A DNA stretch of 64,000 nucleotides, taken from Nibricoccus sp. (GTDB lineage Bacteria; Verrucomicrobiota; Verrucomicrobiia; Opitutales; Opitutaceae). Shown one piece after another: positions 23,266 through 36,614 of the stretch. The stretch is from NCBI GenBank assembly GCA_047602425.1, contig JASGHG010000001.1, forward strand, positions 2,400,001 to 2,464,000, in the 5' to 3' direction. The position numbers and the translations under genes are program-made. The notes beneath the pieces were generated by a model. That model searched no databases. It was not told the DNA's origin and saw only the letters and a program-made list of their open reading frames with translations. Position 1 is the first letter of the stretch. Each line of letters begins with the position of its first letter.

Positions 23266-24177
23266 TCACTTTAGCTGTAGAACTCTGCGTAGTTCTGCGA
23301 CCAGATGAGCAGCTCCGGGGCGAATCGCGACGAGGCGAGGGTTCCAAACGAGCACGATGGGACGGCGCAGTTGATCGAGAATTTTGGACTCAATCACCAC
23401 GTAGTCGACGGGGGCGAGATCCGTCAGCGCCAGTCGAGGTAGAATCGCACCGAATGAACCGGAGCGGACAGCGCTCAACGCATGTGGGAATGACTGGCAC
23501 GCTATAGTGGGAGCGAAAGCTGCGCCGCATGCTTCGGTTAAGCCGCGGAGTTTTTGCGCGAATTGACCGTCGGTTGTTTGCGCAACCAGCGGCACTTTTG
23601 CCAACACTTCTTCCAGCGTCAGCTGTTGAACCTTCGACACGAGTTTGCGCGGTACCACCGCCACGAAAGGAACGTCGCCCAAAGATGCGAACTTGAGCCC
23701 CTCGCCGACCGCGTCGCGCCGAATCAAACCGAAGTCAATGCGGCCATCGTTCAGCTGCTGGACGATTTCGTTGGTGCGGTGATTGTAGGTAGAGAATCGC
23801 ATCGGTGTTTTTCCATGCGAGACTTGCCCCAGTCGTGGAAGGACGAGCCATTGAAGCAGGTTATCGCCCGCCGCGATGCTGTATTCGACAGAGGCGGAAT
23901 GGCACTCTGACCGGAAGTCTTGCAGGGAACGGAGTTGGTGCCGGGCGAGTTCTGCAAGGCGTGTACCTTGAGCCGTGAGTTTGAGAATTTTCCCCTGCCG
24001 CTTGGTTACCTCTACGCCGAAGAATTCCGAAAGCTCGCGGAGTTGGCGGCTGTATTGGCTCTGGCGAATGGGATCGCCGGGAGCTGCTTGGGCAATGCTG
24101 CCAGCATCCTGGACTTCAACCAGAACCTTGAGGCGATCGAGAGAGAGGCCGCGTTCGGCAAAGAGTTGGTCAAACAT
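23266..24177 (-). CDS. LysR-family transcriptional regulator, divergent from the tRNA array
   Basis: N-terminal HTH (GSIAQAA..QSQYSRQLRELSEFFG..L..LT..G) plus substrate-binding domain, 303 aa. Confidence 0.88.
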   Translation of the reverse strand: MFDQLFAERGLSLDRLKVLVEVQDAGSIAQAAPGDPIRQSQYSRQLRELSEFFGVEVTKRQGKILKLTAQGTRLAELARHQLRSLQDFRSECHSASVEYSIAAGDNLLQWLVLPRLGQVSHGKTPMRFSTYNHRTNEIVQQLNDGRIDFGLIRRDAVGEGLKFASLGDVPFVAVVPRKLVSKVQQLTLEEVLAKVPLVAQTTDGQFAQKLRGLTEACGAAFAPTIACQSFPHALSAVRSGSFGAILPRLALTDLAPVDYVVIESKILDQLRRPIVLVWNPRLVAIRPGAAHLVAELRRVLQLK

Positions 24178-24359
24178 GACTATTAAGTCAGGTATCCTGA
24201 GTAATCCTGCATGGCAAGATTTCTAACGATCAGTTAAGGTTAGCCCGTCAACAGAGCCGGGAATTAAGAATCACGAGAAATATTTAAAACACCTCTTGAT
24301 TTTTGAAACTCTGGATCCGTTGTAACTCTTCGAACACACATTCGTCACAACTTTCCGCC

Positions 24360-24515
24360 ATGAAATCCACACGACTTATAACAACCTCAGCCCTCCGGCT
24401 AGCGGAGAGGCATTGGTCGTGTGGCCAGCAGATCGCCAAGACGACCATGCGTAGAGGTTTGGAAAGTTTCCGACCCGATTACGCGAATATTAACCAAGGA
24501 AGTGGAGTAACCTGA
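24360..24515 (+). CDS. Putative 51-aa attenuator leader peptide
   Basis: ATG..TGA, MKSTRLITTSALRLAERHWSCGQQIAKTTMRRGLESFRPDYANINQGSGVT; last codons contain an antiterminator strand. Confidence 0.6.
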   Translation: MKSTRLITTSALRLAERHWSCGQQIAKTTMRRGLESFRPDYANINQGSGVT

Positions 24516-24540
24516 GCAACGACTTTACGTAGACTCACGG

Positions 24541-24569
24541 AACCCACTTCCCTCAGAAGTGGGTTTTTT
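24541..24569 (+). terminator. Intrinsic terminator (attenuator) upstream of the tRNA array
   Basis: AACCCACTTC-cctca-GAAGTGGGTT followed by T run. Confidence 0.85.
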
Positions 24570-24715
24570 CATGCCTGAAAAGCCGCTTCTGGGATCCGAG
24601 CAAGACTCGTTTTTCCAAGTTTCAAGCGGCTTCACAGCTGAGCCCAGGTCAATCAGCCAACGTCCGCACAAAATCCCGCGGCCGTCCAAACCACTCGCAA
24701 AGTGATAGGGCCGGA

Positions 24716-24735
24716 GGTGTGTGTTCTTTTTTGCG
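24716..24735. repeat. Left arm of 20-bp perfect inverted repeat bracketing the array
   Basis: GGTGTGTGTTCTTTTTTGCG is the exact reverse complement of 31197-31216. Confidence 0.9.
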
Positions 24736-24986
24736 ATGGAGCGCGAAGCGCGGAAACGGCGCCAGCCCCGAACCCTGTGAGGGGTGAGGTGCGCGGGTGC
24801 CCGCTCTGCGGGCGCGCTCCGAACAATGCAGGAGCCGAACAAGCTCCTGCACTAATATATCAAGATGCGGTGCGCTTAGATGGCGTTAAACGGCGATGCC
24901 GGCCGCATTTTCAATTTTCCCGCGCATGAGCTAAAGACCGACAGTGTTGTTATATTTGTTGTGAGGTCACGGCTCTAGCGCGAAAA

Positions 24987-25064
24987 CGCCTTGTCGTCTA
25001 ACAAGCACAGGATCCCGGAATTTCAAACCGAGGGATGCGGGTGCGAATCCCGTCGAGGCGACCA
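24987..25064 (+). tRNA. tRNA-Glu(TTC), weak anticodon stem
   Basis: CGCCTTG/CGAGGCG acceptor, loop ATTTCAA, ACCA end. Confidence 0.7.
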
Positions 25065-25173
25065 GTTTGTTCGAACAAGCGCCGGTTCTTAATCCGAGAC
25101 CGGAGTGCGCAGTCCCTATCGGATTTCCAAGGAGCCAACCGGCGGCCAAAGCCGGCAGGGGATAATTTCCAAT

Positions 25174-25247
25174 GCGCGTGTGGCGTAACAGCAACGTGCC
25201 GGTCTGCCAGTCCGGAGTTCCGAGTGCGATCCTCGGCATGCGCACCA
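25174..25247 (+). tRNA. tRNA-Gly(GCC)
   Basis: Cloverleaf, loop CT-GCC-AG, CCA end. Confidence 0.85.
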
Positions 25248-25254
25248 TTTTTAT

Positions 25255-25345
25255 GCGCCGGTACCCATAGCAGCGATTGGTCCAGACTTTTAATCTGGAG
25301 AGCCGCAATGCTCCACCGGGGGTGCAAGTCCCTCTCGGCGCACCA
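25255..25345 (+). tRNA. tRNA-Lys(TTT) with long variable arm
   Basis: CCAGA CT-TTT-AA TCTGG; extra GAGC..GCTC arm; CCA end. Confidence 0.78.
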
Positions 25346-25366
25346 TTTTAATAGATACAATTTCCT

Positions 25367-25444
25367 GCACGTCGAGGGAGCCAGCGAACCCAGCTGCCTG
25401 CAAAGCAGTGTTTCAGCACGGTGCGACACCGTGGACGTGCTCCA
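25367..25444 (+). tRNA. tRNA-Cys(GCA)
   Basis: Loop CT-GCA-AA, U73 discriminator, CCA. Confidence 0.85.
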
Positions 25445-25453
25445 TTTTAGTTT

Positions 25454-25528
25454 GGGGATATGGCCGAGTTAGAAAGGCATCCGCCCTGCAAGCGGACCAT
25501 GAGGGTGCGAATCCCTCTATCTCCACCA
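25454..25528 (+). tRNA. tRNA-Ala(TGC)
   Basis: G3:U70 pair, loop CC-TGC-AA, CCA. Confidence 0.85.
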
Positions 25529-25564
25529 ATTTCCCCCGGTTTTGCGCGAGTGGGCCGGGTTCAA

Positions 25565-25639
25565 GCCTGAGAGGTGTTGATAGATACACGACCGTCTTCC
25601 AAGCGGATGTAGCCGGCGCGATACCGGCCTCGGGCACCA
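25565..25639 (+). tRNA. tRNA-Gly(TCC)
   Basis: Loop CT-TCC-AA, acceptor GCCTGAG/CTCGGGC, CCA. Confidence 0.8.
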
Positions 25640-25646
25640 TTTTTAT

Positions 25647-25724
25647 AGCAGGATGGAGGAGCGGCCGTCCTCACCAGCCTCATAAGCTGCGAGATCGCTG
25701 GTTCAAATCCAGCTCCTGCTACCA
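25647..25724 (+). tRNA. tRNA-Met(CAT), initiator-like body; only array tRNA with canonical TTC T-loop
   Basis: Loop CT-CAT-AA, GGTTCAAATCC, D-loop GG, CCA. Confidence 0.85.
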
Positions 25725-25730
25725 TTTCAT

Positions 25731-25805
25731 ACGGACGTGGCAGACAAGCAATGCAGCGGTCTCCAAAACCGCCTTATGGGGGCGCGATACCCTCCGTCCG
25801 TGCCA
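25731..25805 (+). tRNA. tRNA-Trp(CCA)
   Basis: GCGGT CT-CCA-AA ACCGC, GCCA end. Confidence 0.85.
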
Positions 25806-25902
25806 ATTTGCAATATGAAGAGTAACACTTCGCCAAGGGCGAAGGACGAGTAAAAGTCTCGTTGAAGCAATAAACGGTACTGTGTCGAACGGTGCTGTTT
25901 TT

Positions 25903-25978
25903 GGAGGTTAGGCCGATCTAGTGATGGCACGTGGTTGAAGCCCACGAGAGCGCGGCGCGAAACCGCGAGCCTCCACCA
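25903..25978 (+). tRNA. tRNA-Phe(GAA)
   Basis: CGTGG TT-GAA-GC CCACG, ACCA end. Confidence 0.82.
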
Positions 25979-25987
25979 ATTTGTTAT

Positions 25988-26063
25988 CGGGGTGTAGCGT
26001 AGCAGCCAACGCGCTCGGCTTGGGACCGAAAGATCGCAGGTGCAACTCCTGTCACCCCGACCA
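25988..26063 (+). tRNA. tRNA-Pro(TGG)
   Basis: C1:G72, loop CT-TGG-GA, ACCA. Confidence 0.85.
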
Positions 26064-26068
26064 ATTTT

Positions 26069-26144
26069 CAGGTGTGTGGCCCAGTTAGCGGGGCACCGGC
26101 CCGTGAAGCCGGGGAAATGGGTGCAAATCCCATCCACCTGACCA
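26069..26144 (+). tRNA. tRNA-His(GTG), atypical (A73, no genomic G-1)
   Basis: CCGGC CC-GTG-AA GCCGG; acceptor CAGGTG/CACCTG; ACCA. Confidence 0.7.
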
Positions 26145-26148
26145 CTCC

Positions 26149-26225
26149 GCTCGTGGAGCCGAAGTAGTCGAGGCAACCCTCTGTCTAAGGGAAGTCAGCC
26201 GGTGCGAGTCCGGTCACGAGCGCCA
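26149..26225 (+). tRNA. tRNA-Asp(GTC)
   Basis: Loop CT-GTC-TA, G73, CCA. Confidence 0.82.
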
Positions 26226-26231
26226 ATTTTT

Positions 26232-26308
26232 CGAGGCGTCGCCTAGTAGCTATGGCAGCTGGCCTACATCCAGCCATTCCGGGGGTGCAAGTCCCTCCGC
26301 CTCGACCA
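26232..26308 (+). tRNA. tRNA-Val(TAC)
   Basis: GCTGG CC-TAC-AT CCAGC, ACCA. Confidence 0.82.
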
Positions 26309-26309
26309 T

Positions 26310-26384
26310 TGCCGAGTAGCACAACAGTAGTGCGACGCCCTGTTAAGGCGCTAGGTGCAAGTGCGAATCTTGCCTCGGCAGCCA
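26310..26384 (+). tRNA. tRNA-Asn(GTT)
   Basis: U1:A72, loop CT-GTT-AA, GCCA. Confidence 0.85.
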
Positions 26385-26389
26385 TTTTT

Positions 26390-26465
26390 CGTCGGCGAGA
26401 CGGCCAGTGAAGTCACCTGCCCGACATGCAGGCATCGCTCGGTGCGACACCGAGGCCGACGACCA
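26390..26465 (+). tRNA. tRNA-Val(GAC)
   Basis: CCTGC CC-GAC-AT GCAGG, ACCA. Confidence 0.8.
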
Positions 26466-26559
26466 TGTCCTTAGCTGTGTCGGAGGGTTGGGCACAGCGA
26501 GGAGATCAGCTGGCCCGGCGATAAGCCGGAGACGAGTGCCTCCGCTCCGCCAGCACCAT

Positions 26560-26634
26560 CCGGATGTAGTGTAGCAGCAACACGCTCGCCTCGGACGCGA
26601 GTGACCGAGGGTGCAACTCCCTCCGTCCGGACCA
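26560..26634 (+). tRNA. tRNA-Pro(CGG)
   Basis: CTCGC CT-CGG-AC GCGAG, C1:G72, ACCA. Confidence 0.82.
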
Positions 26635-26640
26635 ATTTAT

Positions 26641-26715
26641 TGCGGTGTCGTCTAACACGTAGGACAGCGGACTTTGAATCCGTTTGTGGAGGTGCGAATC
26701 CTCCCGCCGCAGCCA
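26641..26715 (+). tRNA. tRNA-Gln(TTG)
   Basis: U1:A72, loop CT-TTG-AA, GCCA. Confidence 0.85.
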
Positions 26716-26719
26716 GCTT

Positions 26720-26859
26720 GGGTCGCAAGCTTTAATCGTGAAGCAGCCGGCTCTTAACCGGCAGAACTCGGAGCATTTGACTCGCGCGTACGCGCTCGGG
26801 GCCTTGCCCCTAACCTGCTGGTTAGCCGCTCCGCGTTGCTCCGCCGAGGCGGCCCACCA
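26720..26859 (+). tRNA. tRNA-Lys(CTT) interrupted by ~65-nt insertion in the T-loop (26777-26841)
   Basis: GGGTCGC/GCGGCCC acceptor, GCCGG CT-CTT-AA CCGGC, T-stem CTCGG/CCGAG separated by insert. Confidence 0.75.
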
Positions 26860-26860
26860 T

Positions 26861-26936
26861 GGCTCGATGGCGCAGCATGTAGCGCAGCTCCCTCATAAGG
26901 AGAAGGTCGCGGGTGCGAATCCCGCTCGAGCCCCCA
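26861..26936 (+). tRNA. tRNA-Met(CAT) elongator-like (Ile2 not excluded)
   Basis: Loop CT-CAT-AA, GGCTCGA/TCGAGCC, CCA. Confidence 0.8.
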
Positions 26937-26943
26937 TTTTCAG

Positions 26944-27031
26944 CGGGACGTGGCAGAGCAGCAAATGCAACGCACTGTAAATGCGTCGGCTTCACAGCCT
27001 ATCACTGGTGCAAGTCCAGTCGGCCCGACCA
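26944..27031 (+). tRNA. tRNA-Tyr(GTA)
   Basis: ACGCA CT-GTA-AA TGCGT, long variable arm, ACCA. Confidence 0.85.
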
Positions 27032-27146
27032 CTTTCTCAGTCTCATGGGTGCCAACAACTCATGCTTTTGTCGGTAAAGGTTAAAACCGGCCAGCAGTTC
27101 TGGTGGATCAGAGCAATCGTTAGGTTTTCGCGTAAAAAACCGTTAT

Positions 27147-27222
27147 GCCTCTTAAGCATAGTTAGCGATGCAACTCCTTGGTAAGGAGTAGATGGTCGGC
27201 GCACATCCGACAGGAGGCTCCA
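27147..27222 (+). tRNA. tRNA-Thr(GGT)
   Basis: ACTCC TT-GGT-AA GGAGT, TCCA. Confidence 0.85.
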
Positions 27223-27228
27223 TTTTAT

Positions 27229-27386
27229 GCGAGCGTGGCGGAATAGCATACGCGCCGGCCCGAGATGCCGGTGAGCGCAAGCTCATGAGGGTGCGATTGA
27301 CTCGTATTCGGCGAGCGAATACTCGGGCCTGCGGCCCACGCCTGACGGCATGCCGTTCCGCTTCGCTTCACCCTCCGTTCGCACCA
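27229..27386 (+). tRNA. tRNA-Leu(GAG) interrupted by ~72-nt insertion in the T-loop (27297-27368)
   Basis: Leu-type D arm, CCGGC CC-GAG-AT GCCGG, long variable arm, T-stem GAGGG/CCCTC separated by insert, ACCA. Confidence 0.75.
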
Positions 27387-27392
27387 ATTTAT

Positions 27393-27482
27393 CGCGGCGT
27401 GGTTGGAATCAGTATACACAGCGGTCTCAAAATCCGCTGGGCTTCAACGCCCGTGCCGGTGCGAGTCCGGCCGCCGCGACCA
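27393..27482 (+). tRNA. tRNA-Leu(CAA)
   Basis: Loop CT-CAA-AA, long variable arm, ACCA. Confidence 0.82.
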
Positions 27483-27483
27483 T

Positions 27484-27571
27484 GCGGCTGTGTGTGGAAA
27501 AGTAGACCGAGCGGTTTTAAAAACCGCTGCGCCTCTGGCGCGTGGGCGTGCAAGTCGCCCCAGCCGCACCA
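27484..27571 (+). tRNA. tRNA-Leu(TAA)
   Basis: GCGGT TT-TAA-AA ACCGC, long variable arm, ACCA. Confidence 0.82.
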
Positions 27572-27580
27572 ATTTACTAT

Positions 27581-27667
27581 CGGCAAGTGGTGGAACAAGC
27601 ATACACGCGAGTCTCAGAAACTCGAGGGCGCGAGCCTGTGCAGGTGCAAATCCTGTCTTGCCGACCA
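27581..27667 (+). tRNA. tRNA-Leu(CAG)
   Basis: CGAGT CT-CAG-AA ACTCG, long variable arm, ACCA. Confidence 0.85.
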
Positions 27668-27676
27668 TTTTTCTAT

Positions 27677-27753
27677 CGCCCTGTCCTCTAACGAGCACAG
27701 GAGACCCGTTTCTCAAATGGGCAATGTGGGTGCGAGTCCCATTGGGGCGACCA
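27677..27753 (+). tRNA. tRNA-Glu(CTC)
   Basis: CCCGT TT-CTC-AA ATGGG, ACCA. Confidence 0.82.
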
Positions 27754-27757
27754 TTGA

Positions 27758-27849
27758 CGCCGCGTAGTTCAAAGTGAACCGTCCGCCTTATAAACGGAAT
27801 CGCGCTAGATGAGCGCCAGGCCCGGGAGCGTTACCCGGCGCGGCGACCA
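27758..27849 (+). tRNA. tRNA-Ile(TAT) with long variable arm
   Basis: Loop CT-TAT-AA, extra GCGCT/AGCGC arm, CGCCGCG/CGCGGCG acceptor, ACCA. Confidence 0.7.
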
Positions 27850-27851
27850 AC

Positions 27852-27925
27852 TTTGGGGTAGTGAGGACAGGGTTACTTCGTTCGAAACACGACAAAACAA
27901 CACCTTGTTCAGATTTCTCCTCAAA
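27852..27925 (+). ncRNA. Y-RNA-like unit 1 (minimal, no tRNA module)
   Basis: GGTAGTGAG..TACTTC..TCTCC scaffold with paired termini. Confidence 0.65.
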
Positions 27926-27929
27926 ATAT

Positions 27930-28004
27930 GCCTCTTATGTGTAGTTATCGACGCGCGGCGCTTGTACCGCTGATAGGCCGGCGCAAATCCGGCAGGAGGC
28001 TCCA
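27930..28004 (+). tRNA. tRNA-Thr(TGT)
   Basis: CGGCG CT-TGT-AC CGCTG; same acceptor as Thr(GGT); TCCA. Confidence 0.75.
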
Positions 28005-28006
28005 AT

Positions 28007-28143
28007 TTTCGGGTAGTGAGATCAGGGATACTTCGCCTCCTAAGCGCGTGGTTGTCGGTTCGAGTCCGGCCCTCTCCAAAATTCACGGGGAGGTAGCTCA
28101 ATGGTAGAGCACGTTAAACGCCCTGGCCGGTTTTCTCCCGAAA
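28007..28143 (+). ncRNA. Y-RNA-like unit 2 (YrlA-like, permuted tRNA module)
   Basis: Scaffold, then T arm GTCGG TTCGAGT CCGGC, loop-closed acceptor, D arm TAGCTCAATGGTAGAGC. Confidence 0.8.
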
Positions 28144-28148
28144 CAATT

Positions 28149-28307
28149 TTCTGGGTAGTGAAGGTAGAGATACTTCGCCACCAAAGCGACGCGACCGCTA
28201 TTCCCCGTGCCCGCCGGCAAGCTGGGCTGCGAATACGAGCGCTGGTCCATTGAGCAATCGGTGGATCAGAAGGGCTCTAGGGGAGCTTTGCCTGTTTTCT
28301 CCCAGAA
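28149..28307 (+). ncRNA. Y-RNA-like unit 3 (non-tRNA multi-hairpin module)
   Basis: TTCTGGG/CCCAGAA termini, AGGTAGAG/CTTTGCCT inner stem, conserved motifs. Confidence 0.7.
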
Positions 28308-28312
28308 TAGTT

Positions 28313-28446
28313 TTGGAGGCAGTGAGCGTGCGGATACTTCGGAGAACGCGCTCGCCTAGAGGCGAGAGATTGCAGGTTCAACCCCTGCTCGTGTCGGCAA
28401 CGATACGATGGCGGAATCAAACGCTGCTCGCGACTCTCTCCTCCAA
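28313..28446 (+). ncRNA. Y-RNA-like unit 4 (tRNA-like module opened in the D-loop)
   Basis: TTGGAGG/CCTCCAA termini; T arm GCAGG TTCAACC CCTGC; GCAA-closed acceptor-like stem. Confidence 0.72.
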
Positions 28447-28451
28447 TTCCT

Positions 28452-28602
28452 TTGAAGGTAGTGAGAACGCGGATACTTCTGGTAATGCACGCAAGTGCCA
28501 TGGTTCAAATCCATACACCGCGTTCGGTTTTGGCGCGTTTCACGCGGTCCTGCGGACTCCACCTTCGGTGGCCCCATCTCCGCTACGCTCCGTCTCCTTC
28601 AA
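28452..28602 (+). ncRNA. Y-RNA-like unit 5 (T-loop hairpin; carries ~61-nt insertion 28530-28590)
   Basis: TTGAAGG/CCTTCAA termini, GAACGCGG/CCGCGTTC inner stem, ATGG TTCAAAT CCAT. Confidence 0.68.
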
Positions 28603-28609
28603 TCAATTT

Positions 28610-28743
28610 TGCGGGTAGTGAGTGTATAGCTACTTCGGACTGAACGGTCGGTGGTTCGATCCCACCTGCGCTTCGGCGCATAGCTCAGTGGTAAGAGCAT
28701 TCAGCGGCCGCAAGGCCGTATCTGTGCACGTAGTTCTCCCGCA
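28610..28743 (+). ncRNA. Y-RNA-like unit 6 (YrlA-like)
   Basis: CTGAA/TTCAG stem, T arm GGTGG TTCGATC CCACC, TGCGC-TTCG-GCGCA closed acceptor, D arm TAGCTCAGTGGTAAGAGC; directly before Ro60 gene. Confidence 0.82.
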
Positions 28744-28824
28744 TTACCACCGTGTCCCGGCGCTCCGGGTTTGTCTCGCCGCGAGAGATCATCTCGTGGC
28801 CCTAAAAAGAAAAAGGAGGCCATC

Positions 28825-30264
28825 ATGGCCAAGTTCAGTATCCTCAAAGCCCTGTCGCGCGGAAAATCTGCGCCCAACACGGTCAATTTTGAAAACGGTC
28901 GCGCCTACAAGCAGACCGCCAAAGTCGAATTCGTTTCGATTTTGCTCACCACGTTTCTCCAGGAGGAATTTTATCGCACCGAGAAACAAACCACTGCTCG
29001 CATCCGCGAACTGATCACGCAGGTCAACGACCCACTGTTCGTCGCGAAAGGCGCCCTGTATGCACGTAACAAATACGGCATGCGCTCGGTCAGTCACCTC
29101 GTCGCGGGTGAACTGGCCAAACAGGTCAAAGGTGTTACGTGGACGAAACGTTTCTATTCTGAAGTCGTGCGACGACCGGATGACGTCATGGAAACGCTGG
29201 GTTATTACCTTGCGGCCTACGGTCGTCCGATCCCGAACTCCCTTAAAAAGGGTTTGGGTGCAGCACTGGGTCGTTTCGACGAATATCAACTCGCCAAATA
29301 CCGCCGCGACCACGCGGTCTTCAAACTCGTTGACGCAGTAAATCTGGTTCGTCCGGCAGCAACGCCGGCTCTGTCCAAGCTTGTGAAAGGTGAACTCGCT
29401 CCTGCGCAAACGTGGGAGACTAAACTCACGCAAGCGGGTGCGGCTGAGTCAGCCGATGATGTTGCTGAGGCAAAATCTCAGGCGTGGGCACAGCTGGTGC
29501 GTGAGCGCAAGCTCGGCTACCTCGCTCTGCTCCGCAACGTCCGTAATGTGCTGACGCATGCGCCGGAGGTGGTGGACGAACTTTGCGCGCAGCTTGCCAA
29601 TGAGCAGGCGGTGCGCCGTGCGCTCGTGTTTCCGTTCCAGTTTCTGTCCGCCGTTGAAGTGCTGAAGCAGGGCAACCAGCCAGGTACAAACCGCGTGATG
29701 GATGCGCTGAATCAGGCTATCGATTACTCGCTGGCCAACGTGCCGAAGTTCGAGGGTAACACGCTCGTCGCGCTCGACTCCTCCGGCTCGATGGTGGGTC
29801 GTCCGCAGACGATCGGTTCGCTCTTTGCCGCAACGCTGGTGAAGGCAACCGGTGCTGATCTGATGCTTTTCAGTGATGATGCTCGTTACATCACGCTGAA
29901 CCGTCGCGACACCACGCTCACGGCGGCCAACAGCATCCCGTTCATCTCGGGTGGTACGAACTTCAATGCGATCTTCCAGCGTGCGAACCATGCTTACGAT
30001 CGCATCGTGGTCCTGTCCGATATGCAGGGTTGGGTGGGTGGCGGTGCGCCCGTTGCTGCTTTCGCTGCGTATCAGAAGAAGTACGACTGCGCTCCGCGCG
30101 TCTATAGCTTCGATCTGAAAGGTTACGGTACGCTCCAGTTCCCACAGGAACGGGTTTACTGTCTTGCCGGTTGGAGCGATCGCGTATTCGAGGTCATGCA
30201 AAAACTCGATCGCGATCCCGAGGCACTGGTTCACGAAGTCGAGGCAATCTCGCTCGCGGACTAA
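28825..30264 (+). CDS. rsr: Ro60/TROVE-domain RNA-binding protein with C-terminal vWA
   Basis: RBS AGGAGG; ALYAR..GMRS, FDEYQLAKY, TWET.L, LGYLALLRN.RN; MIDAS DSSGSM, GGTN, SDMQ. Confidence 0.93.
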   Translation: MAKFSILKALSRGKSAPNTVNFENGRAYKQTAKVEFVSILLTTFLQEEFYRTEKQTTARIRELITQVNDPLFVAKGALYARNKYGMRSVSHLVAGELAKQVKGVTWTKRFYSEVVRRPDDVMETLGYYLAAYGRPIPNSLKKGLGAALGRFDEYQLAKYRRDHAVFKLVDAVNLVRPAATPALSKLVKGELAPAQTWETKLTQAGAAESADDVAEAKSQAWAQLVRERKLGYLALLRNVRNVLTHAPEVVDELCAQLANEQAVRRALVFPFQFLSAVEVLKQGNQPGTNRVMDALNQAIDYSLANVPKFEGNTLVALDSSGSMVGRPQTIGSLFAATLVKATGADLMLFSDDARYITLNRRDTTLTAANSIPFISGGTNFNAIFQRANHAYDRIVVLSDMQGWVGGGAPVAAFAAYQKKYDCAPRVYSFDLKGYGTLQFPQERVYCLAGWSDRVFEVMQKLDRDPEALVHEVEAISLAD

Positions 30265-30281
30265 ACGCCTAAATCTCCTAC

Positions 30282-30309
30282 GGAGCCGAACATAGTTCGG
30301 TTCCTTTTT
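30282..30309 (+). terminator. Terminator-like hairpin after rsr, inside the array
   Basis: GGAGCCGAAC-ata-GTTCGGTTCC plus TTTTT. Confidence 0.6.
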
Positions 30310-30384
30310 CTTCCTGTAGTGAAACAGCTATCACGCGGCTCTGCGAAGGCCGAGATCCAGGTGCAAGTCCCGGCAGGAGGACCA
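30310..30384 (+). tRNA. tRNA-Arg(GCG)
   Basis: CGGCT CT-GCG-AA GGCCG, ACCA. Confidence 0.78.
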
Positions 30385-30394
30385 ATTTTCAATA

Positions 30395-30469
30395 CTCTGC
30401 GTGGTGAAATTATTATCATGTCGCGCTTCGAACGCGTAGTTGCGGGTGGGATTCCTGCCGCAGAGGCCA
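30395..30469 (+). tRNA. tRNA-Arg(TCG)
   Basis: Loop CT-TCG-AA, CTCTGCG/CGCAGAG, GCCA. Confidence 0.78.
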
Positions 30470-30473
30470 TTTT

Positions 30474-30546
30474 CTCCGCGTGGCCGAGAAGCTCAGGCCT
30501 CCGCCTTCTAAGCGGATCGACGCAGGTGCAAATCCTGTCGCGGAGA
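30474..30546 (+). tRNA. tRNA-Arg(TCT), CCA not encoded
   Basis: TCCGC CT-TCT-AA GCGGA. Confidence 0.8.
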
Positions 30547-30552
30547 CTTTAC

Positions 30553-30643
30553 GGAGGTGAAATCGGACAAGCGTGCCGACAGCCGTTTGAAGCGGTCAGG
30601 GCGACTGTTTGTCGCTGGGGAGCATGCCCTCTCGCCTCCGCCA
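30553..30643 (+). tRNA. tRNA-Ser(TGA)
   Basis: GGAGG start, loop TT-TGA-AG, long variable arm, GCCA. Confidence 0.72.
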
Positions 30644-30649
30644 ATCTTT

Positions 30650-30735
30650 GGAGAGTAAAGCCGTGAAGCGCGGCGACCGGTTGGAAGCCGGCTCGGACCT
30701 CCGGGTCTGTGGGGCAGAACCACTGCTCTCCGCCA
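30650..30735 (+). tRNA. tRNA-Ser(GGA)
   Basis: Loop TT-GGA-AG, long variable arm, GCCA. Confidence 0.78.
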
Positions 30736-30742
30736 AATGTGT

Positions 30743-30832
30743 GGAGAGTGAATCCGCCGAGGTGCGGACGCTGTTTCGAAAGCAGCTGGATCGGCGATGC
30801 CGGTTGAGGCGCAAGCCCTCCGCTCTCCGCCA
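30743..30832 (+). tRNA. tRNA-Ser(CGA)
   Basis: GCTGT TT-CGA-AA GCAGC, long variable arm, GCCA. Confidence 0.8.
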
Positions 30833-30837
30833 TTTTT

Positions 30838-30911
30838 CCTCGTGTAGCTCAAAAGCAGAGCAATCGGCCGATAACCGATCGACGTCGGAGCGTTACCGAA
30901 CGCGAGGACCA
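30838..30911 (+). tRNA. tRNA-Ile(GAT)
   Basis: ATCGG CC-GAT-AA CCGAT, ACCA. Confidence 0.8.
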
Positions 30912-30917
30912 TTTTTC

Positions 30918-31005
30918 GGAGGGTTAATCCCGAGAGTCGGAAGCCGCGGTGCTAACGCGTGCGGCGGTAAAAGCCGCTGAGGGGCAGGACCTCAACCCTC
31001 CGCCA
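30918..31005 (+). tRNA. tRNA-Ser(GCT)
   Basis: Loop GT-GCT-AA, long variable arm, GCCA. Confidence 0.75.
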
Positions 31006-31006
31006 T

Positions 31007-31080
31007 TGCCGGGTCGTCTAGCAGCAGGACAGCGGTCTCTGAAACCGCGAACGCATGTGCGACTCATGCCCCGGCAGCCA
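31007..31080 (+). tRNA. tRNA-Gln(CTG)
   Basis: GCGGT CT-CTG-AA ACCGC, U1:A72, GCCA. Confidence 0.85.
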
Positions 31081-31196: not shown

Positions 31197-31228
31197 CGCA
31201 AAAAAGAACACACACCCACGTTGGCTGA
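31197..31228. repeat. Right arm, complementary to 24716-24735 (20 bp) and 24653-24663 (11 bp)
   Basis: CGCAAAAAAGAACACACACC-c-ACGTTGGCTGA. Confidence 0.9.
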
Positions 31229-31277
31229 GCTGAGCCCAGCGGAGCTGCGCCATTTTCAATTTATCCATTTCGTTCCC

Positions 31278-31913
31278 ATGAACACTAGCATTCTCGACAA
31301 ACCCATCGTCCTGTCGCTTAACCGCGCCTGGCAGGTGATCGGCCACCGTACCGTGAAGCAGGCTCTCGTAGCTCTTAACGGTGGTTCGGCTGGTCTACCG
31401 CCTGCGCTCGGTCTCGACATTGCCTATCCGAAGCTCGACGACGGTGGTTGGAATTTCGACCGCCCGCTTTTCCTCAACCCGCTTCCGTGGGCTGAGTGGA
31501 TCAATCTGCCGGTTCGTGAATTCGACTTCGTTGTCTCAACGCCGCGGATGCAAATCCGCGTTCCCACCGTTATCATCTCGACGCAATACGATCGCATGCC
31601 GATCCGCCTCCCGCGGGTCACGCGTCAGGCGATTTTTGAGCGCGATGGTGGTATCTGCCAATACACCGGCGAATTTGTCGGCAAGAACGGTGGCAATCTC
31701 GACCACGTTGTGCCCCGCGATCGCGGTGGCCGCGACAGTTTCGAAAACCTCGTTTGGGCCAAAAGAGAGGTCAACTCGCTGAAGGCTAATCGCCTGCCGC
31801 ATGAGGCTGGTCTCCGACTGCTCAGACGTCCCAAGGCACCTGCTCCGCTTCCGGCGGCTGCCTCAATTCGTGAAGCGAAACATCCCGACTGGCGCCACTT
31901 CCTCGCACACTGA
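31278..31913 (+). CDS. HNH endonuclease
   Basis: VL.LN..W, IFERDGG.CQYTG, DHVVPR.RGG...FENLV...VN..K.N; start moved to MNTSIL. Confidence 0.9.
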   Translation: MNTSILDKPIVLSLNRAWQVIGHRTVKQALVALNGGSAGLPPALGLDIAYPKLDDGGWNFDRPLFLNPLPWAEWINLPVREFDFVVSTPRMQIRVPTVIISTQYDRMPIRLPRVTRQAIFERDGGICQYTGEFVGKNGGNLDHVVPRDRGGRDSFENLVWAKREVNSLKANRLPHEAGLRLLRRPKAPAPLPAAASIREAKHPDWRHFLAH

Positions 31914-31981
31914 AACCCTGCGGTGGGGGAGTGGCCCAGCCGACTCTACGACTCGTCGCCTTTTCCGCAGGGCTAACTTCC

Positions 31982-32689
31982 ATGAACACCGAATCAGCTA
32001 CTTCCATCGGAATTTCCGATCTCCTCGACATCGTAGATACCGCCCTGGCGACGATCTCCCGTCGTTTGCCGGTTCATGTTGGCCGTGAAGACCTGGCCAC
32101 CGTCGGCAAGCTCGCGCTCATATCCGCGCTGGGCCAGTGCAGTGGTTCGGTCAGCGAGGTTCGCGCTTACTGCTTCGTGCGGGTGCGCGGCGCGATTCTG
32201 GACGAACTACGCCGCCTTGATCCGCTTTCGCGCCGCCGCCGTGAACAACTCACAGCGGTTGTTCGTGCCCAAGCCGAATTGAGCGCGCGCCTCGGCCGAG
32301 CAGCCACGCGGGCTGAAATCGCGGTAGCGACCAAGCTTTCACTTTCGGAGGTTACCGCTGTGCAGCAAATGCTCGCGCAGGAATCGGAATTTTCTGAAAC
32401 GGAAGTCGAATTGCTGCCCGACACGGAAGCATCATCGCCGGCCGAAACGATCGAGGCTGAGGATCTTCGCCTAAATCTGCGCGGTGCACTTCAGCGCCTT
32501 AACAGCGCTCAAGCGGCCGTGCTTTACCGCTACTATTTCGACGAGGTCACGCTCGATGTGATTGCGGCCGAGATGGGCCTCTCGAAAGAGCGTGTTCGCC
32601 AGATCCGCGACGCCGGTGAAAAAAAACTCCGTGCTGACTTCATCGTCCTGTCGATCTGGCAGTCACTCATTAACCACAGCCGGGATTAG
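31982..32689 (+). CDS. Sigma-70 family sigma factor (FliA/WhiG-like)
   Basis: RVRGAILDELRRLD (region 2) and TL..IA..MGLSKERVRQI (region 4). Confidence 0.85.
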   Translation: MNTESATSIGISDLLDIVDTALATISRRLPVHVGREDLATVGKLALISALGQCSGSVSEVRAYCFVRVRGAILDELRRLDPLSRRRREQLTAVVRAQAELSARLGRAATRAEIAVATKLSLSEVTAVQQMLAQESEFSETEVELLPDTEASSPAETIEAEDLRLNLRGALQRLNSAQAAVLYRYYFDEVTLDVIAAEMGLSKERVRQIRDAGEKKLRADFIVLSIWQSLINHSRD

Positions 32690-32709
32690 TCATCCCGGCT
32701 GCTTTGCTC

Positions 32710-33375
32710 ATGCGCTTTTTGGACAAACACACAACTCGGGACAAACTGTTGCTCAGGCTTGAACGCGAGCGCAACCGACTTTGGCAGGCGCAGCGAGATG
32801 CTCCGATTGTTCCGCTGGAACATCCATACCAACGTGGCTGGGTGAAGACGTTTCAACTTCGCGAGGATGTTTCACGTCGCCCGGACGCTGCAATTTTCCG
32901 AACCATCCTGGCTGCCGTGAACCTGAAAGTTTTTTCCCGCAATCGAGAATTTCTAAATCCACGAGGAGAGGAAATCCTGCTGCGACCGAAGAAACTCAGA
33001 ATCGACCAGTGGAGAAAGCTGGCTTGGCCAGCCAGTCATCAGCGCTTCTTTGCTTTCGGGCATTGGCGAGCGGACGAAGAGGCATGGATGCCTTTGCGGC
33101 TCCGCCGGCTGCTGCCCGGCTACAAGCTGGTGCATAATTGGTGGTTAGTAGAAGATGCACAGCCGCATTTGATCACTCACCAACGCGTGGAGCTTCCAAC
33201 AGTCCGCAAGCGCCTCTCAGAAATTGAGGCATACCTGAGCCACCGGCAGGGACACGAGCGACTCAACAAGCTTCATGGCCGGAGTGATTGGTGGCGCAGA
33301 TTTGTGGAATCGCGCGCCGATATCCGGACAAATTACTTCATCGAAGAGCAGCTTTCCCGCGAAATAGAAACATGA
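32710..33375 (+). CDS. Basic, Trp/Arg-rich hypothetical protein
   Basis: ORF co-oriented in operon; PLEHPYQRGW motif. Confidence 0.7.
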   Translation: MRFLDKHTTRDKLLLRLERERNRLWQAQRDAPIVPLEHPYQRGWVKTFQLREDVSRRPDAAIFRTILAAVNLKVFSRNREFLNPRGEEILLRPKKLRIDQWRKLAWPASHQRFFAFGHWRADEEAWMPLRLRRLLPGYKLVHNWWLVEDAQPHLITHQRVELPTVRKRLSEIEAYLSHRQGHERLNKLHGRSDWWRRFVESRADIRTNYFIEEQLSREIET

Positions 33376-33473
33376 CTAAACAGTCATGTTTTATGCCACA
33401 AGCCCTCTATTTCGATGCACGTCATTGTGGTATATTTTTCCAATCAAAACTAAGAAAAAGAAACAAAATACAT

Positions 33474-33962
33474 ATGAAAACGATCACCCTTTCACACGCC
33501 CTGAAACACAAAAACCGTCTGGCCGGCGACGTCGCACGGCTGCGCGAAATCGTGCAACGCGAAAACTCACGCAAGGAATCGCAGCCGGCTCGCGCCGACG
33601 TGCGGGTTGCCTTCGACGATAGCGTCGCCCGTTCCCGCGAACTGGCTGCTTTCAAAGGTGCAATCGCCTCCGCAAATGCAGGCGTGCTTTCCGAGGATCG
33701 TGGTATCTATGCCAAGTTGAATCTTCAGGCCGAGCTGCGTGGCCTGATCGTCTTTATCAAGGGGCTCAACACCAAGGAGGGTGAAGAGGTTGAGCGCGTC
33801 GGCTTCATGAGTCGCGACGATGCCATCCGCACGGTCTACGTTGCAACGATTACCCGCGAGGAAGTTGATCGTCTGGTTGTCGCCTATCAGAATGAAATCG
33901 AACGTTTGCAGGATGAAATCGACGAGTTCAACGCAACAACGCGCATTCCTTTGACCAACTAG
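33474..33962 (+). CDS. Coiled-coil hypothetical protein (DIP1984-like)
   Basis: TLSHALK.K..L; LAAFK.AI..AN; LQDEIDEFN..T.I. Confidence 0.7.
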   Translation: MKTITLSHALKHKNRLAGDVARLREIVQRENSRKESQPARADVRVAFDDSVARSRELAAFKGAIASANAGVLSEDRGIYAKLNLQAELRGLIVFIKGLNTKEGEEVERVGFMSRDDAIRTVYVATITREEVDRLVVAYQNEIERLQDEIDEFNATTRIPLTN

Positions 33963-34185
33963 TCCTTTCGGGCCCGGCTTGAACACGTACGACTGACTAC
34001 AGGCATTCTGGCATCCAACGATGCCATTGCGGTCTGATAAACCGTAACAACGATATCGACCTGATTGTTAACAGTCATCGTTCAACCTCTCAAAATACAA
34101 AAATTACCGCTAAAGGTTAAAACTTTTGCCACCTGCTTCAATTGTACGCGTTTCAGGCCGGTGTCCCGATCAAATTGTAAGAGCC

Positions 34186-35721
34186 ATGAATATGGAAATC
34201 AAAGCCCGTGATCTCGTTGCTGCCGGTTGGCATGAAGGCCGCCGCCTAGGCGCTGCTCTCCGCCGCGCACGTGATCTCGAATCCACTGGAATTTCTCGCG
34301 CCGAAGTGCTCGTTCAACTCGAACAAGAATTTCCAAAGCAACTCGCCGTGATTCTTCCGCGCTATGAGCCGGCTCCGCTGGCCGAAGCGATCGAAGCTAC
34401 CACACCGGAAGAAGCGACCAACGTTACCTCGGCCCGTCAGCGCATGCTCGAACTTCTCCACGTCCCGGTGGTGAAGCGCGGAAGCATCATGCCGGACGCC
34501 TGCCCGTCGGGTGGTGGTCGTGCCACGATTCCGGTTGGGGGAGCCATCGAAGTCGAGAATGCCATCATTCCCGGCGCTCACTCGGCTGATATCTGCTGCT
34601 CGATGTACGCATCCTTTTTCCCGGCCAACCATCCGGTGGGCGAAATGATGGATCATCTTCAGAAGACCACGCACTTCGGTGCGGGTGGTCGTGCACGCGG
34701 TCAGCAATGGACCACGTCGGTGGTGGAAGAGCCGGTTTGGGATAACCCTTTCCTTTCCGGACTGCGTAGCCGGGCCCAGGATTTCATGGGAACCCAAGGC
34801 GACGGAAATCATTTCGCCTATGTCGGACGTATCCAGTTTACGGATGCGCAACGCGCTGCGCTTGAATCCGCCGGCTATACCGAACTCACCGAATGGATCG
34901 TGCGCCGCGACGGTGAATTCAACGTCCTCGTGACTCACCACGGTTCGCGTGGTCTCGGTGCTGATGTGTACAAACGCGGCCAGAAAGCTGCCCGCAAATG
35001 GTGTGACGAAAACGCCAAAGATATTCCCGACGCAGCTGTCTGGTTGCCGTACGATTCTCCGGATGGCTCCGCTTACTGGGACGCGTTGCAGTACGTATCT
35101 CGCTGGACGCGTGAAAACCACGCCCAGATCCATGCCGCCTTCCTGCGTCGCTTGGGTCAGCGTGGCCTCGTGCAAATCGGCAACGAGCACAACTTTGTTT
35201 GGAAACGCGGAGATTCTTTCTTCCACGGAAAGGGTGCTACGCCGGCGTGGAAAGACGCGCAGGGCCGTCCGCTGCTCGGAATTATTCCGCTTAACATGGC
35301 CCGTGAAATCCTCCTCGTACTTGGTTCGGACAACAACAACTACCTGTCGTTCTGTCCGCACGGCGCTGGTCGCAACCTGTCGCGCTCGGCCATGCTGCGT
35401 CCTTACAAAGACGTGGACGGTGAAATCGATCCGGCACTCGTGCAGAAGACCCTGGCCGAAACCACGGCCGGGCTTGATATCCGTTGGTTCAATGGCGCAC
35501 CGGATTTGTCCGAGTCTCCGCTCGGCTACAAAAACGCTACGCAGGTGAAGGCGCAGATCGACCGCTTTGGTTTGGCCACGGTGGTTGGCGAAATCCAACC
35601 GCGCGGTTGCATAATGGCCGGCGAAGCTCCGGAACCGCCATGGGCTCGTGCTCGCCGCGAAAAACGCGCTGCCCACAAAGCCATGCGCCGCGAGGGCGAT
35701 GTTGAAGTGGGTGAAGCCTAA
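34186..35721 (+). CDS. rtcB: RtcB RNA ligase
   Basis: MPDAC, SADICCS, GTQGDGNHF, THHGSRG, EHNF, HGKGATP, HGAGR, ESP.GYK. Confidence 0.93.
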   Translation: MNMEIKARDLVAAGWHEGRRLGAALRRARDLESTGISRAEVLVQLEQEFPKQLAVILPRYEPAPLAEAIEATTPEEATNVTSARQRMLELLHVPVVKRGSIMPDACPSGGGRATIPVGGAIEVENAIIPGAHSADICCSMYASFFPANHPVGEMMDHLQKTTHFGAGGRARGQQWTTSVVEEPVWDNPFLSGLRSRAQDFMGTQGDGNHFAYVGRIQFTDAQRAALESAGYTELTEWIVRRDGEFNVLVTHHGSRGLGADVYKRGQKAARKWCDENAKDIPDAAVWLPYDSPDGSAYWDALQYVSRWTRENHAQIHAAFLRRLGQRGLVQIGNEHNFVWKRGDSFFHGKGATPAWKDAQGRPLLGIIPLNMAREILLVLGSDNNNYLSFCPHGAGRNLSRSAMLRPYKDVDGEIDPALVQKTLAETTAGLDIRWFNGAPDLSESPLGYKNATQVKAQIDRFGLATVVGEIQPRGCIMAGEAPEPPWARARREKRAAHKAMRREGDVEVGEA

Positions 35722-35887
35722 AAGAGTGGTTCGTTGTCAGCTCAGCCGAGATTGTGGGTGACACCGAAGGTCCGGCGCGATTTTTAGTCCGCTCGGAGTC
35801 GCGGCGTTCTTTTTCGTGACCGGCAGACTAGATCTGCTGTTGCGGAAAAAGACGGCGCGCGACGCGAAAGTTTTTGCAACAGACGCC

Positions 35888-36614
35888 TCAGAAAACAGCG
35901 AAGCGTTCCGGCACGATCACGATGTCAGACGGTTTCAGGAAAAAGGGTTCTTTGGTGGAACCATCCATCATGGCCTTCACATTCACGGTGAAGTTTTCGG
36001 TTCGGCCATTTTCATCCTTTCGGATGACCGTGACGGATTTCAGATTTGCCTTCGCGAAATCGGGGCCGCCCGCTTCCATGATGGCTTCCAGCAAGGTGAG
36101 AGCGTGATCGGTGGTGATTTTACCTGGATGGAGCACGGCGCCGGATACGAAGGTCGAAAAATTCGCAGTCACCACCGTGACAATGATTTCCTTGGTGACG
36201 AGCTGTGGGGCGTAGAGACGGATCAACTCAGCTTGAAGATCGCTAGGGGTGAATCCCGCGGCTCTGCACTTCGCCAATGAGCGCGAGAGAGATCTTGCCG
36301 TCGCGACGAATGGTTTGCACGGCGTCCAAGTTTGGCGCGCTCGGGAAGGAAATTTTCACAACGTCACCTTCGCGCAAGGTCAGGGCCTCGGCTTTCGACG
36401 TGGCGACAGGTGCCGGTTTTGATTCACGGACGGGAGCGGCAACAGGTGCGGGCGCCGAATCTCCCCGACGGAAGATTCCACAGCCAGTGTTCAAGGCCAG
36501 CAGCAGGATCGTGGTTATTGCAACTGTGCAACTAAAAGGACGGCGGGACTGCTCGCGATGGAGAAAGGTTGTTGAGCCGGACATAGGAGAGGAAGTTTTG
36601 AAAAGGGTGGTCAT
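35888..36614 (-). pseudogene. Polysaccharide export lipoprotein (Wza/SLBB-like), apparently frameshifted
   Basis: 5' ORF ends ..IRRDGKISLALIGEVQ; continuation AAGFTPSDLQ..VSGAVLHPG..L.PSDIVIVPE is in another frame (shift near 36263). Confidence 0.75.

Follow-up and report, generated by a model that had tools for sequence, protein, structure and literature searches.

Leader region upstream of a tRNA gene array in Nibricoccus

A stretch of 64,000 nt from Nibricoccus sp. (contig JASGHG010000001.1; family Opitutaceae, Verrucomicrobiota), referred to throughout as the window, was analysed around a leader region that lies between a divergent LysR-family regulator gene and a long array of tRNA genes. 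The leader contains a 51-codon open reading frame (ORF) followed by an intrinsic terminator, and its anatomy indicates that it is probably a leader attenuator, which would turn on spare tRNA genes and RNA-repair genes when ribosomes stall. The features of the locus are as follows, with the basis of each assignment in parentheses.

23266–24177, minus strand: divergent LysR-family regulator gene (Pfam HTH_1 and LysR_substrate)
24295–24326, plus strand: conserved promoter-like motif CTTGAT-N16-CCGTTGTAAC, a putative promoter (motif scan across leaders)
24360–24515, plus strand: leader ORF, 51 codons plus TGA (translation)
24498–24505, plus strand: antiterminator strand A, GGAAGTGG, in codons 47–49 of the leader ORF (sequence, folding, covariation)
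24543–24569, plus strand: intrinsic terminator, CCCACTTC / loop CCTCA / GAAGTGGG / U6 (folding and conservation)
24575–24732, plus strand: conserved RNA of about 160 nt (homolog search, consensus fold)
24987–31080, plus strand: array of at least 26 tRNA genes, with the Ro60 gene and two weak Y-RNA-like matches inside it (ARAGORN, Rfam)
28771–30264, plus strand: Ro60 (TROVE) gene (Pfam TROVE)
31221–31913: HNH endonuclease-domain protein gene, in the array between the last tRNA genes and the sigma-factor gene (Pfam)
31931–32689, plus strand: sigma-70-family factor gene (Pfam Sigma70 regions 3 and 4)
34126–35721, plus strand: RtcB RNA ligase gene (Pfam RtcB)

The LysR, Ro60 and RtcB genes named in the initial annotation of this DNA were all matched by Pfam. 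ARAGORN detected 22 tRNA genes in the array and the Rfam tRNA model four more, giving 26 rather than the 38 originally counted, degenerate tRNA genes not having been searched for. The terminator does lie upstream of the array, but not directly before it, the first tRNA-like gene being at 24987, 418 nt past the U tract. Judged on same-strand clustering, patchiness among relatives and RNA-processing neighbours (here the Ro60, RtcB and HNH genes, identified with Pfam), the array is a long tRNA array, the 'L-array' of PMC8421152.

Recounting of the leader ORF gave 41 distinct sense codons among its 51 and all 20 amino acids, as originally reported, and the codon list agrees in detail (five of the six Arg codons, all three Ile codons, four Ser and four Leu codons, and both codons for Lys, Glu, Gln and Asn). 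For 51 codons drawn uniformly, a mean of 34.7 distinct codons is expected (sd 2.3), with P = 0.0056 for at least 41 and P = 0.030 for all 20 amino acids. The leader peptide of the window has no Pfam match. No Shine-Dalgarno sequence precedes the ORF; such sequences are rare in the window (6 of 48 putative gene starts), and its absence is therefore no argument against translation of the leader. The distance from the first base of strand A to that of the stop codon is 15 nt.

Strand A (GGAAGTGG, 24498–24505) is, as first noticed in the initial annotation, the exact complement of CCACTTCC (24544–24551) in the 5′ arm of a strong terminator. The latter is termed strand B, and the 3′ arm of the terminator, GAAGTGGG, strand A′. 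The terminator consists of CCCACTTC (24543–24550), the loop CCTCA, GAAGTGGG (24556–24563) and six T (24564–24569), and its hairpin folded alone has a free energy of -16.6 kcal/mol (z = -3.9). A consensus scan missed this terminator; it gave just two sites, each of them on the minus strand. When the RNA from 24330 to the end of B was folded, A and B were paired in the minimum-free-energy structure (z = -4.75). Rfam searches over 24180–24986 identified no family, only two chance-level matches (19.3 and 11.8 bits against gathering scores of 100 and 42.5). A search of RNA sequencing runs matched 11 runs, none with more than 0.20 of the sampled words, and the four examined consist of contigs from relatives. 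One metatranscriptome contig (316 nt) spans 24375–24691 across the terminator and two contigs from libraries flagged 'probably DNA' span 24246–24511 and 24296–24563; as contigs, they give no information on transcript ends, strand or abundance.

The leader ORF and the position of its stop are conserved

Homologous leaders were collected in several ways. A second copy is present in the same genome, 36.5 kb upstream and outside the window (L013, G000:C1:2387617-2388340); it is 92% identical, also heads a tRNA array, and has beside it a LysR paralog that is 94% identical at the protein level (tblastn). The two paralogous ORFs differ at 20 bases and in 15 codons (6 synonymous, 9 not), and both have stayed open and retained all 20 amino acids. 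BLAST-type searches also recovered the leader region outside this genus, from 12 of 41 and from 14 of 401 genomes, in other genera of Opitutaceae. A pattern scan for A, B, A′ and the U tract, using one genome per species, returned 93 stretches, nearly all from Opitutaceae or other Verrucomicrobiota, with seven loci from other phyla (Paenibacillus, Natribacillus, Paludifilum, Pseudogracilibacillus, Pseudomonas and Armatimonadota). The distinct pattern sites number 102, of which 94 are Verrucomicrobial and 8 belong to other phyla. In order to avoid selection by the feature being tested, a further set was assembled through the conserved RNA behind the terminator alone; this set of 29 distinct loci from 401 family genomes is referred to as the unbiased set.

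The initial annotation had proposed comparing homologous loci for a leader ORF and a covarying pairing that are kept despite divergence of the peptide. This comparison came out in favour: the leader ORF is conserved, so is the place where it stops, and the A:B pairing is maintained with covariation. Using a definition of the leader ORF as one with an ATG start, 40–75 codons and a stop just past A, such an ORF was present at 92 of the 94 Verrucomicrobial sites (the remaining two being a spurious second match in L064, and L105, without an ATG in range), at only one of the eight chance pattern sites of other phyla, and at 28 of the 29 unbiased loci. The 92 unique leaders have ORFs of 45–60 codons (median 52), and in 86 of them the stop starts 10–16 nt past the beginning of A. 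The ATG is followed by AAA or AAC in 67. Across A, 73 leaders are read as Gly-Ser-Gly, 12 in the next frame (...GKWKN-stop) and seven in the third (...QEVE-stop, ...LEVGIT-stop). As all three frames are used over A, conservation applies to the motif as RNA and to where the ribosome terminates, rather than to a Gly-Ser-Gly peptide. Even the 73 peptides of the first frame fall into 16 clusters at a loose identity threshold and are barely alignable, and RNAalifold on a MAFFT alignment of 49 whole leaders recovered only the terminator, the ORF region being too divergent to align.

The features by which attenuators are recognised were compared with the locus. A short ORF lies on the same strand in the 5′ leader, upstream of the genes that would be regulated; its end is placed so that a terminating ribosome would mask A, given the known size of the ribosomal footprint; and an intrinsic terminator, with a GC-rich hairpin and a U tract, stands between the ORF and the downstream genes. 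A competing antiterminator helix, in which the 5′ arm of the terminator is one of the two strands, is also present and covaries (below). A cluster of codons for the operon's own amino acid or amino acids is absent, and no runs were seen.

The antiterminator is conserved through compensatory changes

The hairpin and U tract are kept in all aligned homologs. The alignment placed strand B one column off in several rows, and A:B pairs were counted by motif-anchored folding. In all 29 unbiased loci, the best duplex that the upstream 70 nt can form with the 5′ arm of the terminator is the A element, at 7–10 bp. Most loci have the invariant pair GGAAGTGG / CCACTTCC, as is to be expected when any change must be matched in three strands. 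The changes that do occur show that the antiterminator is conserved through compensation, in some cases outside the terminator stem. In L129, CGAAGTGG stands with CCACTTCG, so that a G-C pair has become C-G, at a pair that is not part of the terminator stem. In L133, GGAAAGTGG and CCACTTTCC carry a matched insertion while A′ is still GGAAGTGGG, which preserves the antiterminator but introduces a bulge into the terminator. A triple change, GGAAGCGG / CCGCTTCC / GGAAGCGGG, was found in three genera (L003/L142, L127 and L130). Three loci with GGGAAGGGG pair through one bulged A, and GGGAGTGG variants retain a G-U pair. Folding of the 92 leaders cut after B gave A:B in the minimum-free-energy structure of 70; with the full-length RNA, the terminator was in the fold of 73 and A:B in that of 19.

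Leaders are enriched for amino-acid completeness and not for codon diversity

The initial annotation described the ORF as an 'all-codon sensor'. The enrichment it pointed to was found for amino acids, but not for codons. The 92 unique leaders contain a mean of 18.7 kinds of amino acid, with all 20 in 34 and at least 19 in 54. For the 73 leaders that read A as Gly-Ser-Gly, the mean is 18.9 kinds, with all 20 in 31; composition-matched simulation at the same length gave a mean of 16.6, and the same DNA read in frames +1 and +2 gave 16.2 and 17.6 (all 20 in 1 and 3 of 73, respectively). Background sequence was lower still: 979 windows of 51 codons from real genes had a mean of 15.8 kinds (all 20 in 0.5%, at least 19 in 4.6%), and 7634 natural stop-free windows of 51 codons, in any frame of the same loci, a mean of 15.0 (all 20 in 0.35%, at least 19 in 3.3%). 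The excess holds across unrelated peptides, with 15 of the 16 clusters above the composition-matched null (18.4 against 16.4 kinds), and in the unbiased set (mean 19.1 kinds, all 20 in 13 of 28).

The excess is also found in the sensing zone, defined as the codons at such a distance from A that a ribosome halted on them would not occlude it. This zone contains a mean of 18.2 kinds against 15.8 expected, 90 of the 92 leaders being above their own null, and Trp, Cys and His are present in it in 84%, 95% and 97% of leaders, respectively.

Codon diversity was considered as a conserved trait and rejected: the leaders have a mean of 34.66 distinct codons, which is no higher than their peptides predict under unbiased synonymous choice (35.65), although above the prediction for gene-like usage (32.78). 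The 41 codons of the window copy are at the high end given its peptide (P = 0.02) and in the upper tail of the family. What these results support as the conserved property is the presence of each amino acid, and not that of each codon.

Genes and a promoter-like motif associated with the leaders

Leaders accompanied by the conserved RNA nearly always head same-strand tRNA arrays, with up to 15 tRNAs in the 2.5 kb examined, and a divergent LysR homolog lies at a fixed distance from the leader in 39 of the 92 loci (tblastn). At 34 of the 92, a sigma-70-family gene follows the leader, roughly 40–50 nt or about 750 nt downstream; these loci are without the LysR gene, and most are also without tRNAs and the conserved RNA. 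The sigma factors encoded behind other leaders are 44–57% identical to the one in the window array. Ro60 genes follow three of the leaders and an RtcB gene one. The downstream genes (tRNA arrays, Ro60, RtcB and the sigma factor) fit a response to failure of translation.

A motif TTGnn-N16-CCGWW is located upstream of 84 of the 92 leaders, with a spacer of 16 nt in all 84, compared with 88 of 1880 random 110-nt segments (4.7%). A sigma-70 consensus scan found no standard promoter at the locus. The motif, which resembles the -10 element of sigma-28-type promoters, is a putative promoter, and the sigma factor carried by the array may read it and thereby amplify its own expression.

Several other observations were made in the downstream region. 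Two matches to YrlA (Y-RNA-like) lie just 5′ of the Ro60 gene, at 28021–28130 and 28626–28728, scoring 40.1 and 31.3 bits against a gathering score of 69. The ORFs at 32704–33375, 33288–33962 and 35816–36280, between and after the sigma-factor and RtcB genes, have no Pfam match and may share the operon. Further on, 37234–39666 encodes an 810-aa protein with at least four immunoglobulin-type domains (Ig_3, I-set), families that are mostly eukaryotic.

A conserved RNA follows the terminator

The conserved RNA of about 160 nt at 24575–24732 was found in 76 of the 401 sampled family genomes, representing 30 of 63 genera, and at loci L002–L008, L017–L021 and L125–L152; it has no Rfam family. Its 5′ part, GCCGCTTCC, can pair with A′ over 10 bp, with some covariation, or with AAGCGGC (24624–24630) further on, the segment GCCGCTTC (24582–24589) having the same two potential partners. 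It contains an invariant core, GGCTTCAC.GCTGAGCCCAGGTCAATCAGCC, and a hairpin CCGC/GCGG with a T-loop-like loop, UCAAAUCC; two of its hairpins are invariant, and near the 3′ end a helix pair covaries well in the consensus fold. The RNA ends in GGTGTGTGTTC-U6 (24716–24732), 13 nt past the last helix, and this end is not a canonical terminator. Possible roles include a second checkpoint, a processed small RNA, and a tRNA-like or Y-like partner of Ro60.

Two other proposals for this region were rejected. A second leader ORF running through the conserved RNA was ruled out, as frames and stops vary among homologs and single-base indels occur in the core. A long-range pairing between GAACAC in the 5′ untranslated region (5′ UTR) and GTGTTC before the second U tract was set aside, GAACAC being present also in leaders without the downstream RNA.

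Between the conserved RNA and the first tRNA, the window copy has an 89-nt GC-rich insertion relative to the paralogous leader (24737–24825), which resembles a small repeated or mobile hairpin element; similar sequence occurs at the same place in genomes G046 and G354. Another conserved stretch, GCGGTGCGC...GGCGTTAAACGGCGATGCCGGCCGC followed by a T-rich run (24860–24935), is common to genomes G006, G007, G396 and G287.

Proposed mechanism and alternative explanations

The leader is best read as a ribosome-mediated attenuator of the trp/his type that would sense stalling at any amino acid, and an approximate probability of 0.6 is assigned to this reading. Transcription would start at the conserved promoter about 35 nt 5′ of the ATG, and the 51-codon leader would be translated. 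The footprint of a bacterial ribosome extends roughly 12 nt 5′ of the P-site codon, so that with the stop 15 nt past the start of A, a terminating ribosome would cover A from its first base. An unhindered ribosome at the stop would thus occupy A while B and A′ are made; B, which lies about 45 nt past the start of A, would be free of the ribosome and would pair with A′, and the U tract would end the transcript (off). A ribosome stalled more than about 4–5 codons before A would leave A free to pair with B as it emerges, no terminator would form, and transcription would read through (on). With nearly every amino acid present once or a few times, shortage of or damage to almost any tRNA or amino acid would induce the downstream genes, as would a general block to elongation. 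The induced set would comprise a near-complete extra set of tRNAs, presumably co-transcribed with the leader, together with Ro60 and Y-like RNAs, RtcB and a dedicated sigma factor. Of the mechanism put forward in the initial annotation, the anatomy and the comparative test have stood and the wording in terms of codons has not, and stall-dependent read-through is a prediction from the anatomy.

A more specific form of this proposal is a 'pan-amino-acid' leader, complete in the 20 amino acids and otherwise free to drift, that would monitor the supply of every tRNA and amino acid and drive a regulon for translation or tRNA damage, including a probably self-amplifying sigma factor that reads TTGnn-N16-CCGWW. 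This is put forward tentatively, at slightly less than even odds.

Several observations weigh against the attenuator as described. In the window copy, the minimum-free-energy fold of the full leader retains A:B and not the terminator, as it does in 19 of the 92 leaders, and an uncompensated single mismatch in A:B is present in L135, L127 (at the outer pair) and L102. Completeness is not universal, 16 of the 92 leaders having 16–17 kinds of amino acid, and in the window leader Val and Asn occur only within nine codons of the stop, where a stalled ribosome would be close enough to keep A covered. The pattern set and the unbiased set overlap in species, and related genomes are not independent samples. 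In the window, the conserved RNA (about 160 nt, with a U-rich end as well) and then a further 250 nt or so separate the terminator from the first tRNA, so that an internal promoter or a second checkpoint is possible. Lastly, A is complementary to the 5′ UTR just before the ATG in many leaders, with a perfect CCACTTCC there in several; a ribosome stalled in the middle of the ORF would leave this segment unmasked, so the simple two-state logic may be incomplete.

The alternative that survives best, although we regard it as unlikely, is that the same attenuator reports only the overall pace of translation relative to transcription, the completeness in amino acids having no sensing purpose. Any ORF so placed would respond to global blocks of elongation, and synonymous codon choice in the leaders appears to be unselected. 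There are also precedents: the tRNA array of Anabaena is induced by translation inhibitors such as chloramphenicol (PMC8421152), and the upstream ORF (uORF) of topAI in E. coli senses several classes of ribosome-targeting antibiotics (PMC12121999). However, a sensor of pace alone gives no account of why 15 of 16 unalignable clusters exceed composition-matched nulls in kinds of amino acid, nor of why all 20 are about 100 times commoner than in natural stop-free windows.

A three-state switch is a still less probable explanation. Here, the 5′ UTR segment, termed B0, would pair with A when no ribosome is loaded, so that untranslated transcripts would terminate too, and read-through would occur only when stalled or queued ribosomes also cover B0. 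RNA cut before B has A paired with the region from -35 to -1 in most of the 92 leaders, and the duplex between A and the 5′ UTR, which has a mean of -8.7 kcal/mol compared with -6.1 kcal/mol in control upstream regions, reaches -9 kcal/mol or lower in 42% of leaders against 9% of 265 control upstream regions (Mann-Whitney p = 2e-17). The duplex is weak in the window copy, however, at only -5.9 kcal/mol, and the GGAAGCGG variants show no covariation of the 5′ UTR segment. This genome also seems often to have stretches rich in pyrimidines ahead of its start codons, so the complementarity may be partly compositional. Finally, it is very improbable that the ORF is there by accident, or is the gene of a small protein followed by a terminator of its own, with the hairpins set by a protein or small ligand in the manner of a riboswitch or having no regulatory function. 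In favour of this, the leader RNA shows strong structure (z = -4.5 and -4.75), with conserved internal hairpins seen by eye and some nucleotide conservation such as CGACCCGATTACGCGAA, but a frame of about 50 codons with an ATG and a stop fixed to A at 92 of 94 sites, in three frames, is not expected of a non-coding RNA, nor are peptides beyond alignment and without a Pfam match expected of a functional protein.

Comparison with known systems

Long tRNA arrays have been reported in Verrucomicrobia among other phyla (PMC8421152). Such arrays are found in many phyla, and their activation is understood only in outline, for one cyanobacterium. The leaders analysed here would place a simple switch ahead of such arrays, and also ahead of RtcB, Ro60 and the sigma factor, in a whole bacterial family. 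If the attenuator reading is true, it would extend leader-peptide attenuation from one amino acid and one biosynthetic operon to general sensing of tRNA or amino-acid failure. In its pan-amino-acid form, the leader would detect when any one tRNA species disappears, as under attack by an anticodon nuclease, and would be the first mechanistic account of how long tRNA arrays are activated. The promoter motif, sigma factor, attenuator and effectors would together form a compact translation-damage regulon in Verrucomicrobia. Full-text searches of a literature collection without most subscription journals returned no account of leader-peptide attenuation ahead of tRNA arrays, RtcB or Ro60, nor of a leader whose defining trait is the presence of all 20 amino acids.

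Leader-peptide attenuation is known from the his, leu, thr, ilv and pheA operons of enteric bacteria as well as from trp. The logic of trp leader attenuation is summarised in PMC4007540. The window leader has in common with these classical attenuators a short leader ORF (translated there), a terminator with a U tract before the regulated genes, antiterminator and terminator hairpins that compete for a common strand and so exclude each other, and a stop at which a terminating ribosome would cover the antiterminator strand. Whereas classical leaders repeat the codons of one amino acid, or of two or three, and control biosynthetic operons, this leader contains nearly all 20 without runs and precedes tRNA genes, RNA-repair genes and a sigma factor; it also differs in the absence of a Shine-Dalgarno sequence, in its Verrucomicrobial host, and in having a possible anti-antiterminator in the 5′ UTR rather than in the ORF.

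Leader peptides of the erm and bmrCD type are sensors of ribosome-targeting antibiotics, as is the uORF upstream of topAI-yjhQ in E. coli. Like the leader proposed here, such sensors report translation stress in general. They respond to drug-bound ribosomes, often through specific peptide motifs, and have resistance or toxin genes as targets, whereas here the peptide is free to vary yet complete in kinds of amino acid, and the targets are tRNAs and RNA repair. In enteric bacteria, RtcR, a sigma-54 enhancer-binding protein, controls the RNA-repair operons rtcBA or rsr-yrlBA-rtcBA, which are induced by damage to the translation apparatus. The effector genes of the RtcR operons (RtcB, Ro60/Rsr and Y RNAs) are shared with this locus, but a LysR gene and a cis-acting leader ORF are present instead, no RtcR-type gene having been seen beside the window leader. 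As described in PMC12121999, stalling in a short upstream ORF of topAI-yjhQ in E. coli reshapes the RNA and turns on downstream genes, as is proposed here.

The trn operon of Anabaena PCC 7120 is a long tRNA array that stays silent until translation is impaired and shares its regulation with rtcB (PMC8421152). Points in common are the horizontal spread of a long tRNA array and the link to rtcB and, as proposed here, silence by default and a response to impaired translation. Control of the Anabaena array is ascribed there to promoter repeats, and neither 'attenuat' nor 'terminator' occurs in the text of that paper, in contrast to the leader ORF and terminator of the present locus. Set against these systems, the element is a variant of leader-peptide attenuation that is distinguished by the lack of single-amino-acid codon runs and is part of a wider regulon.

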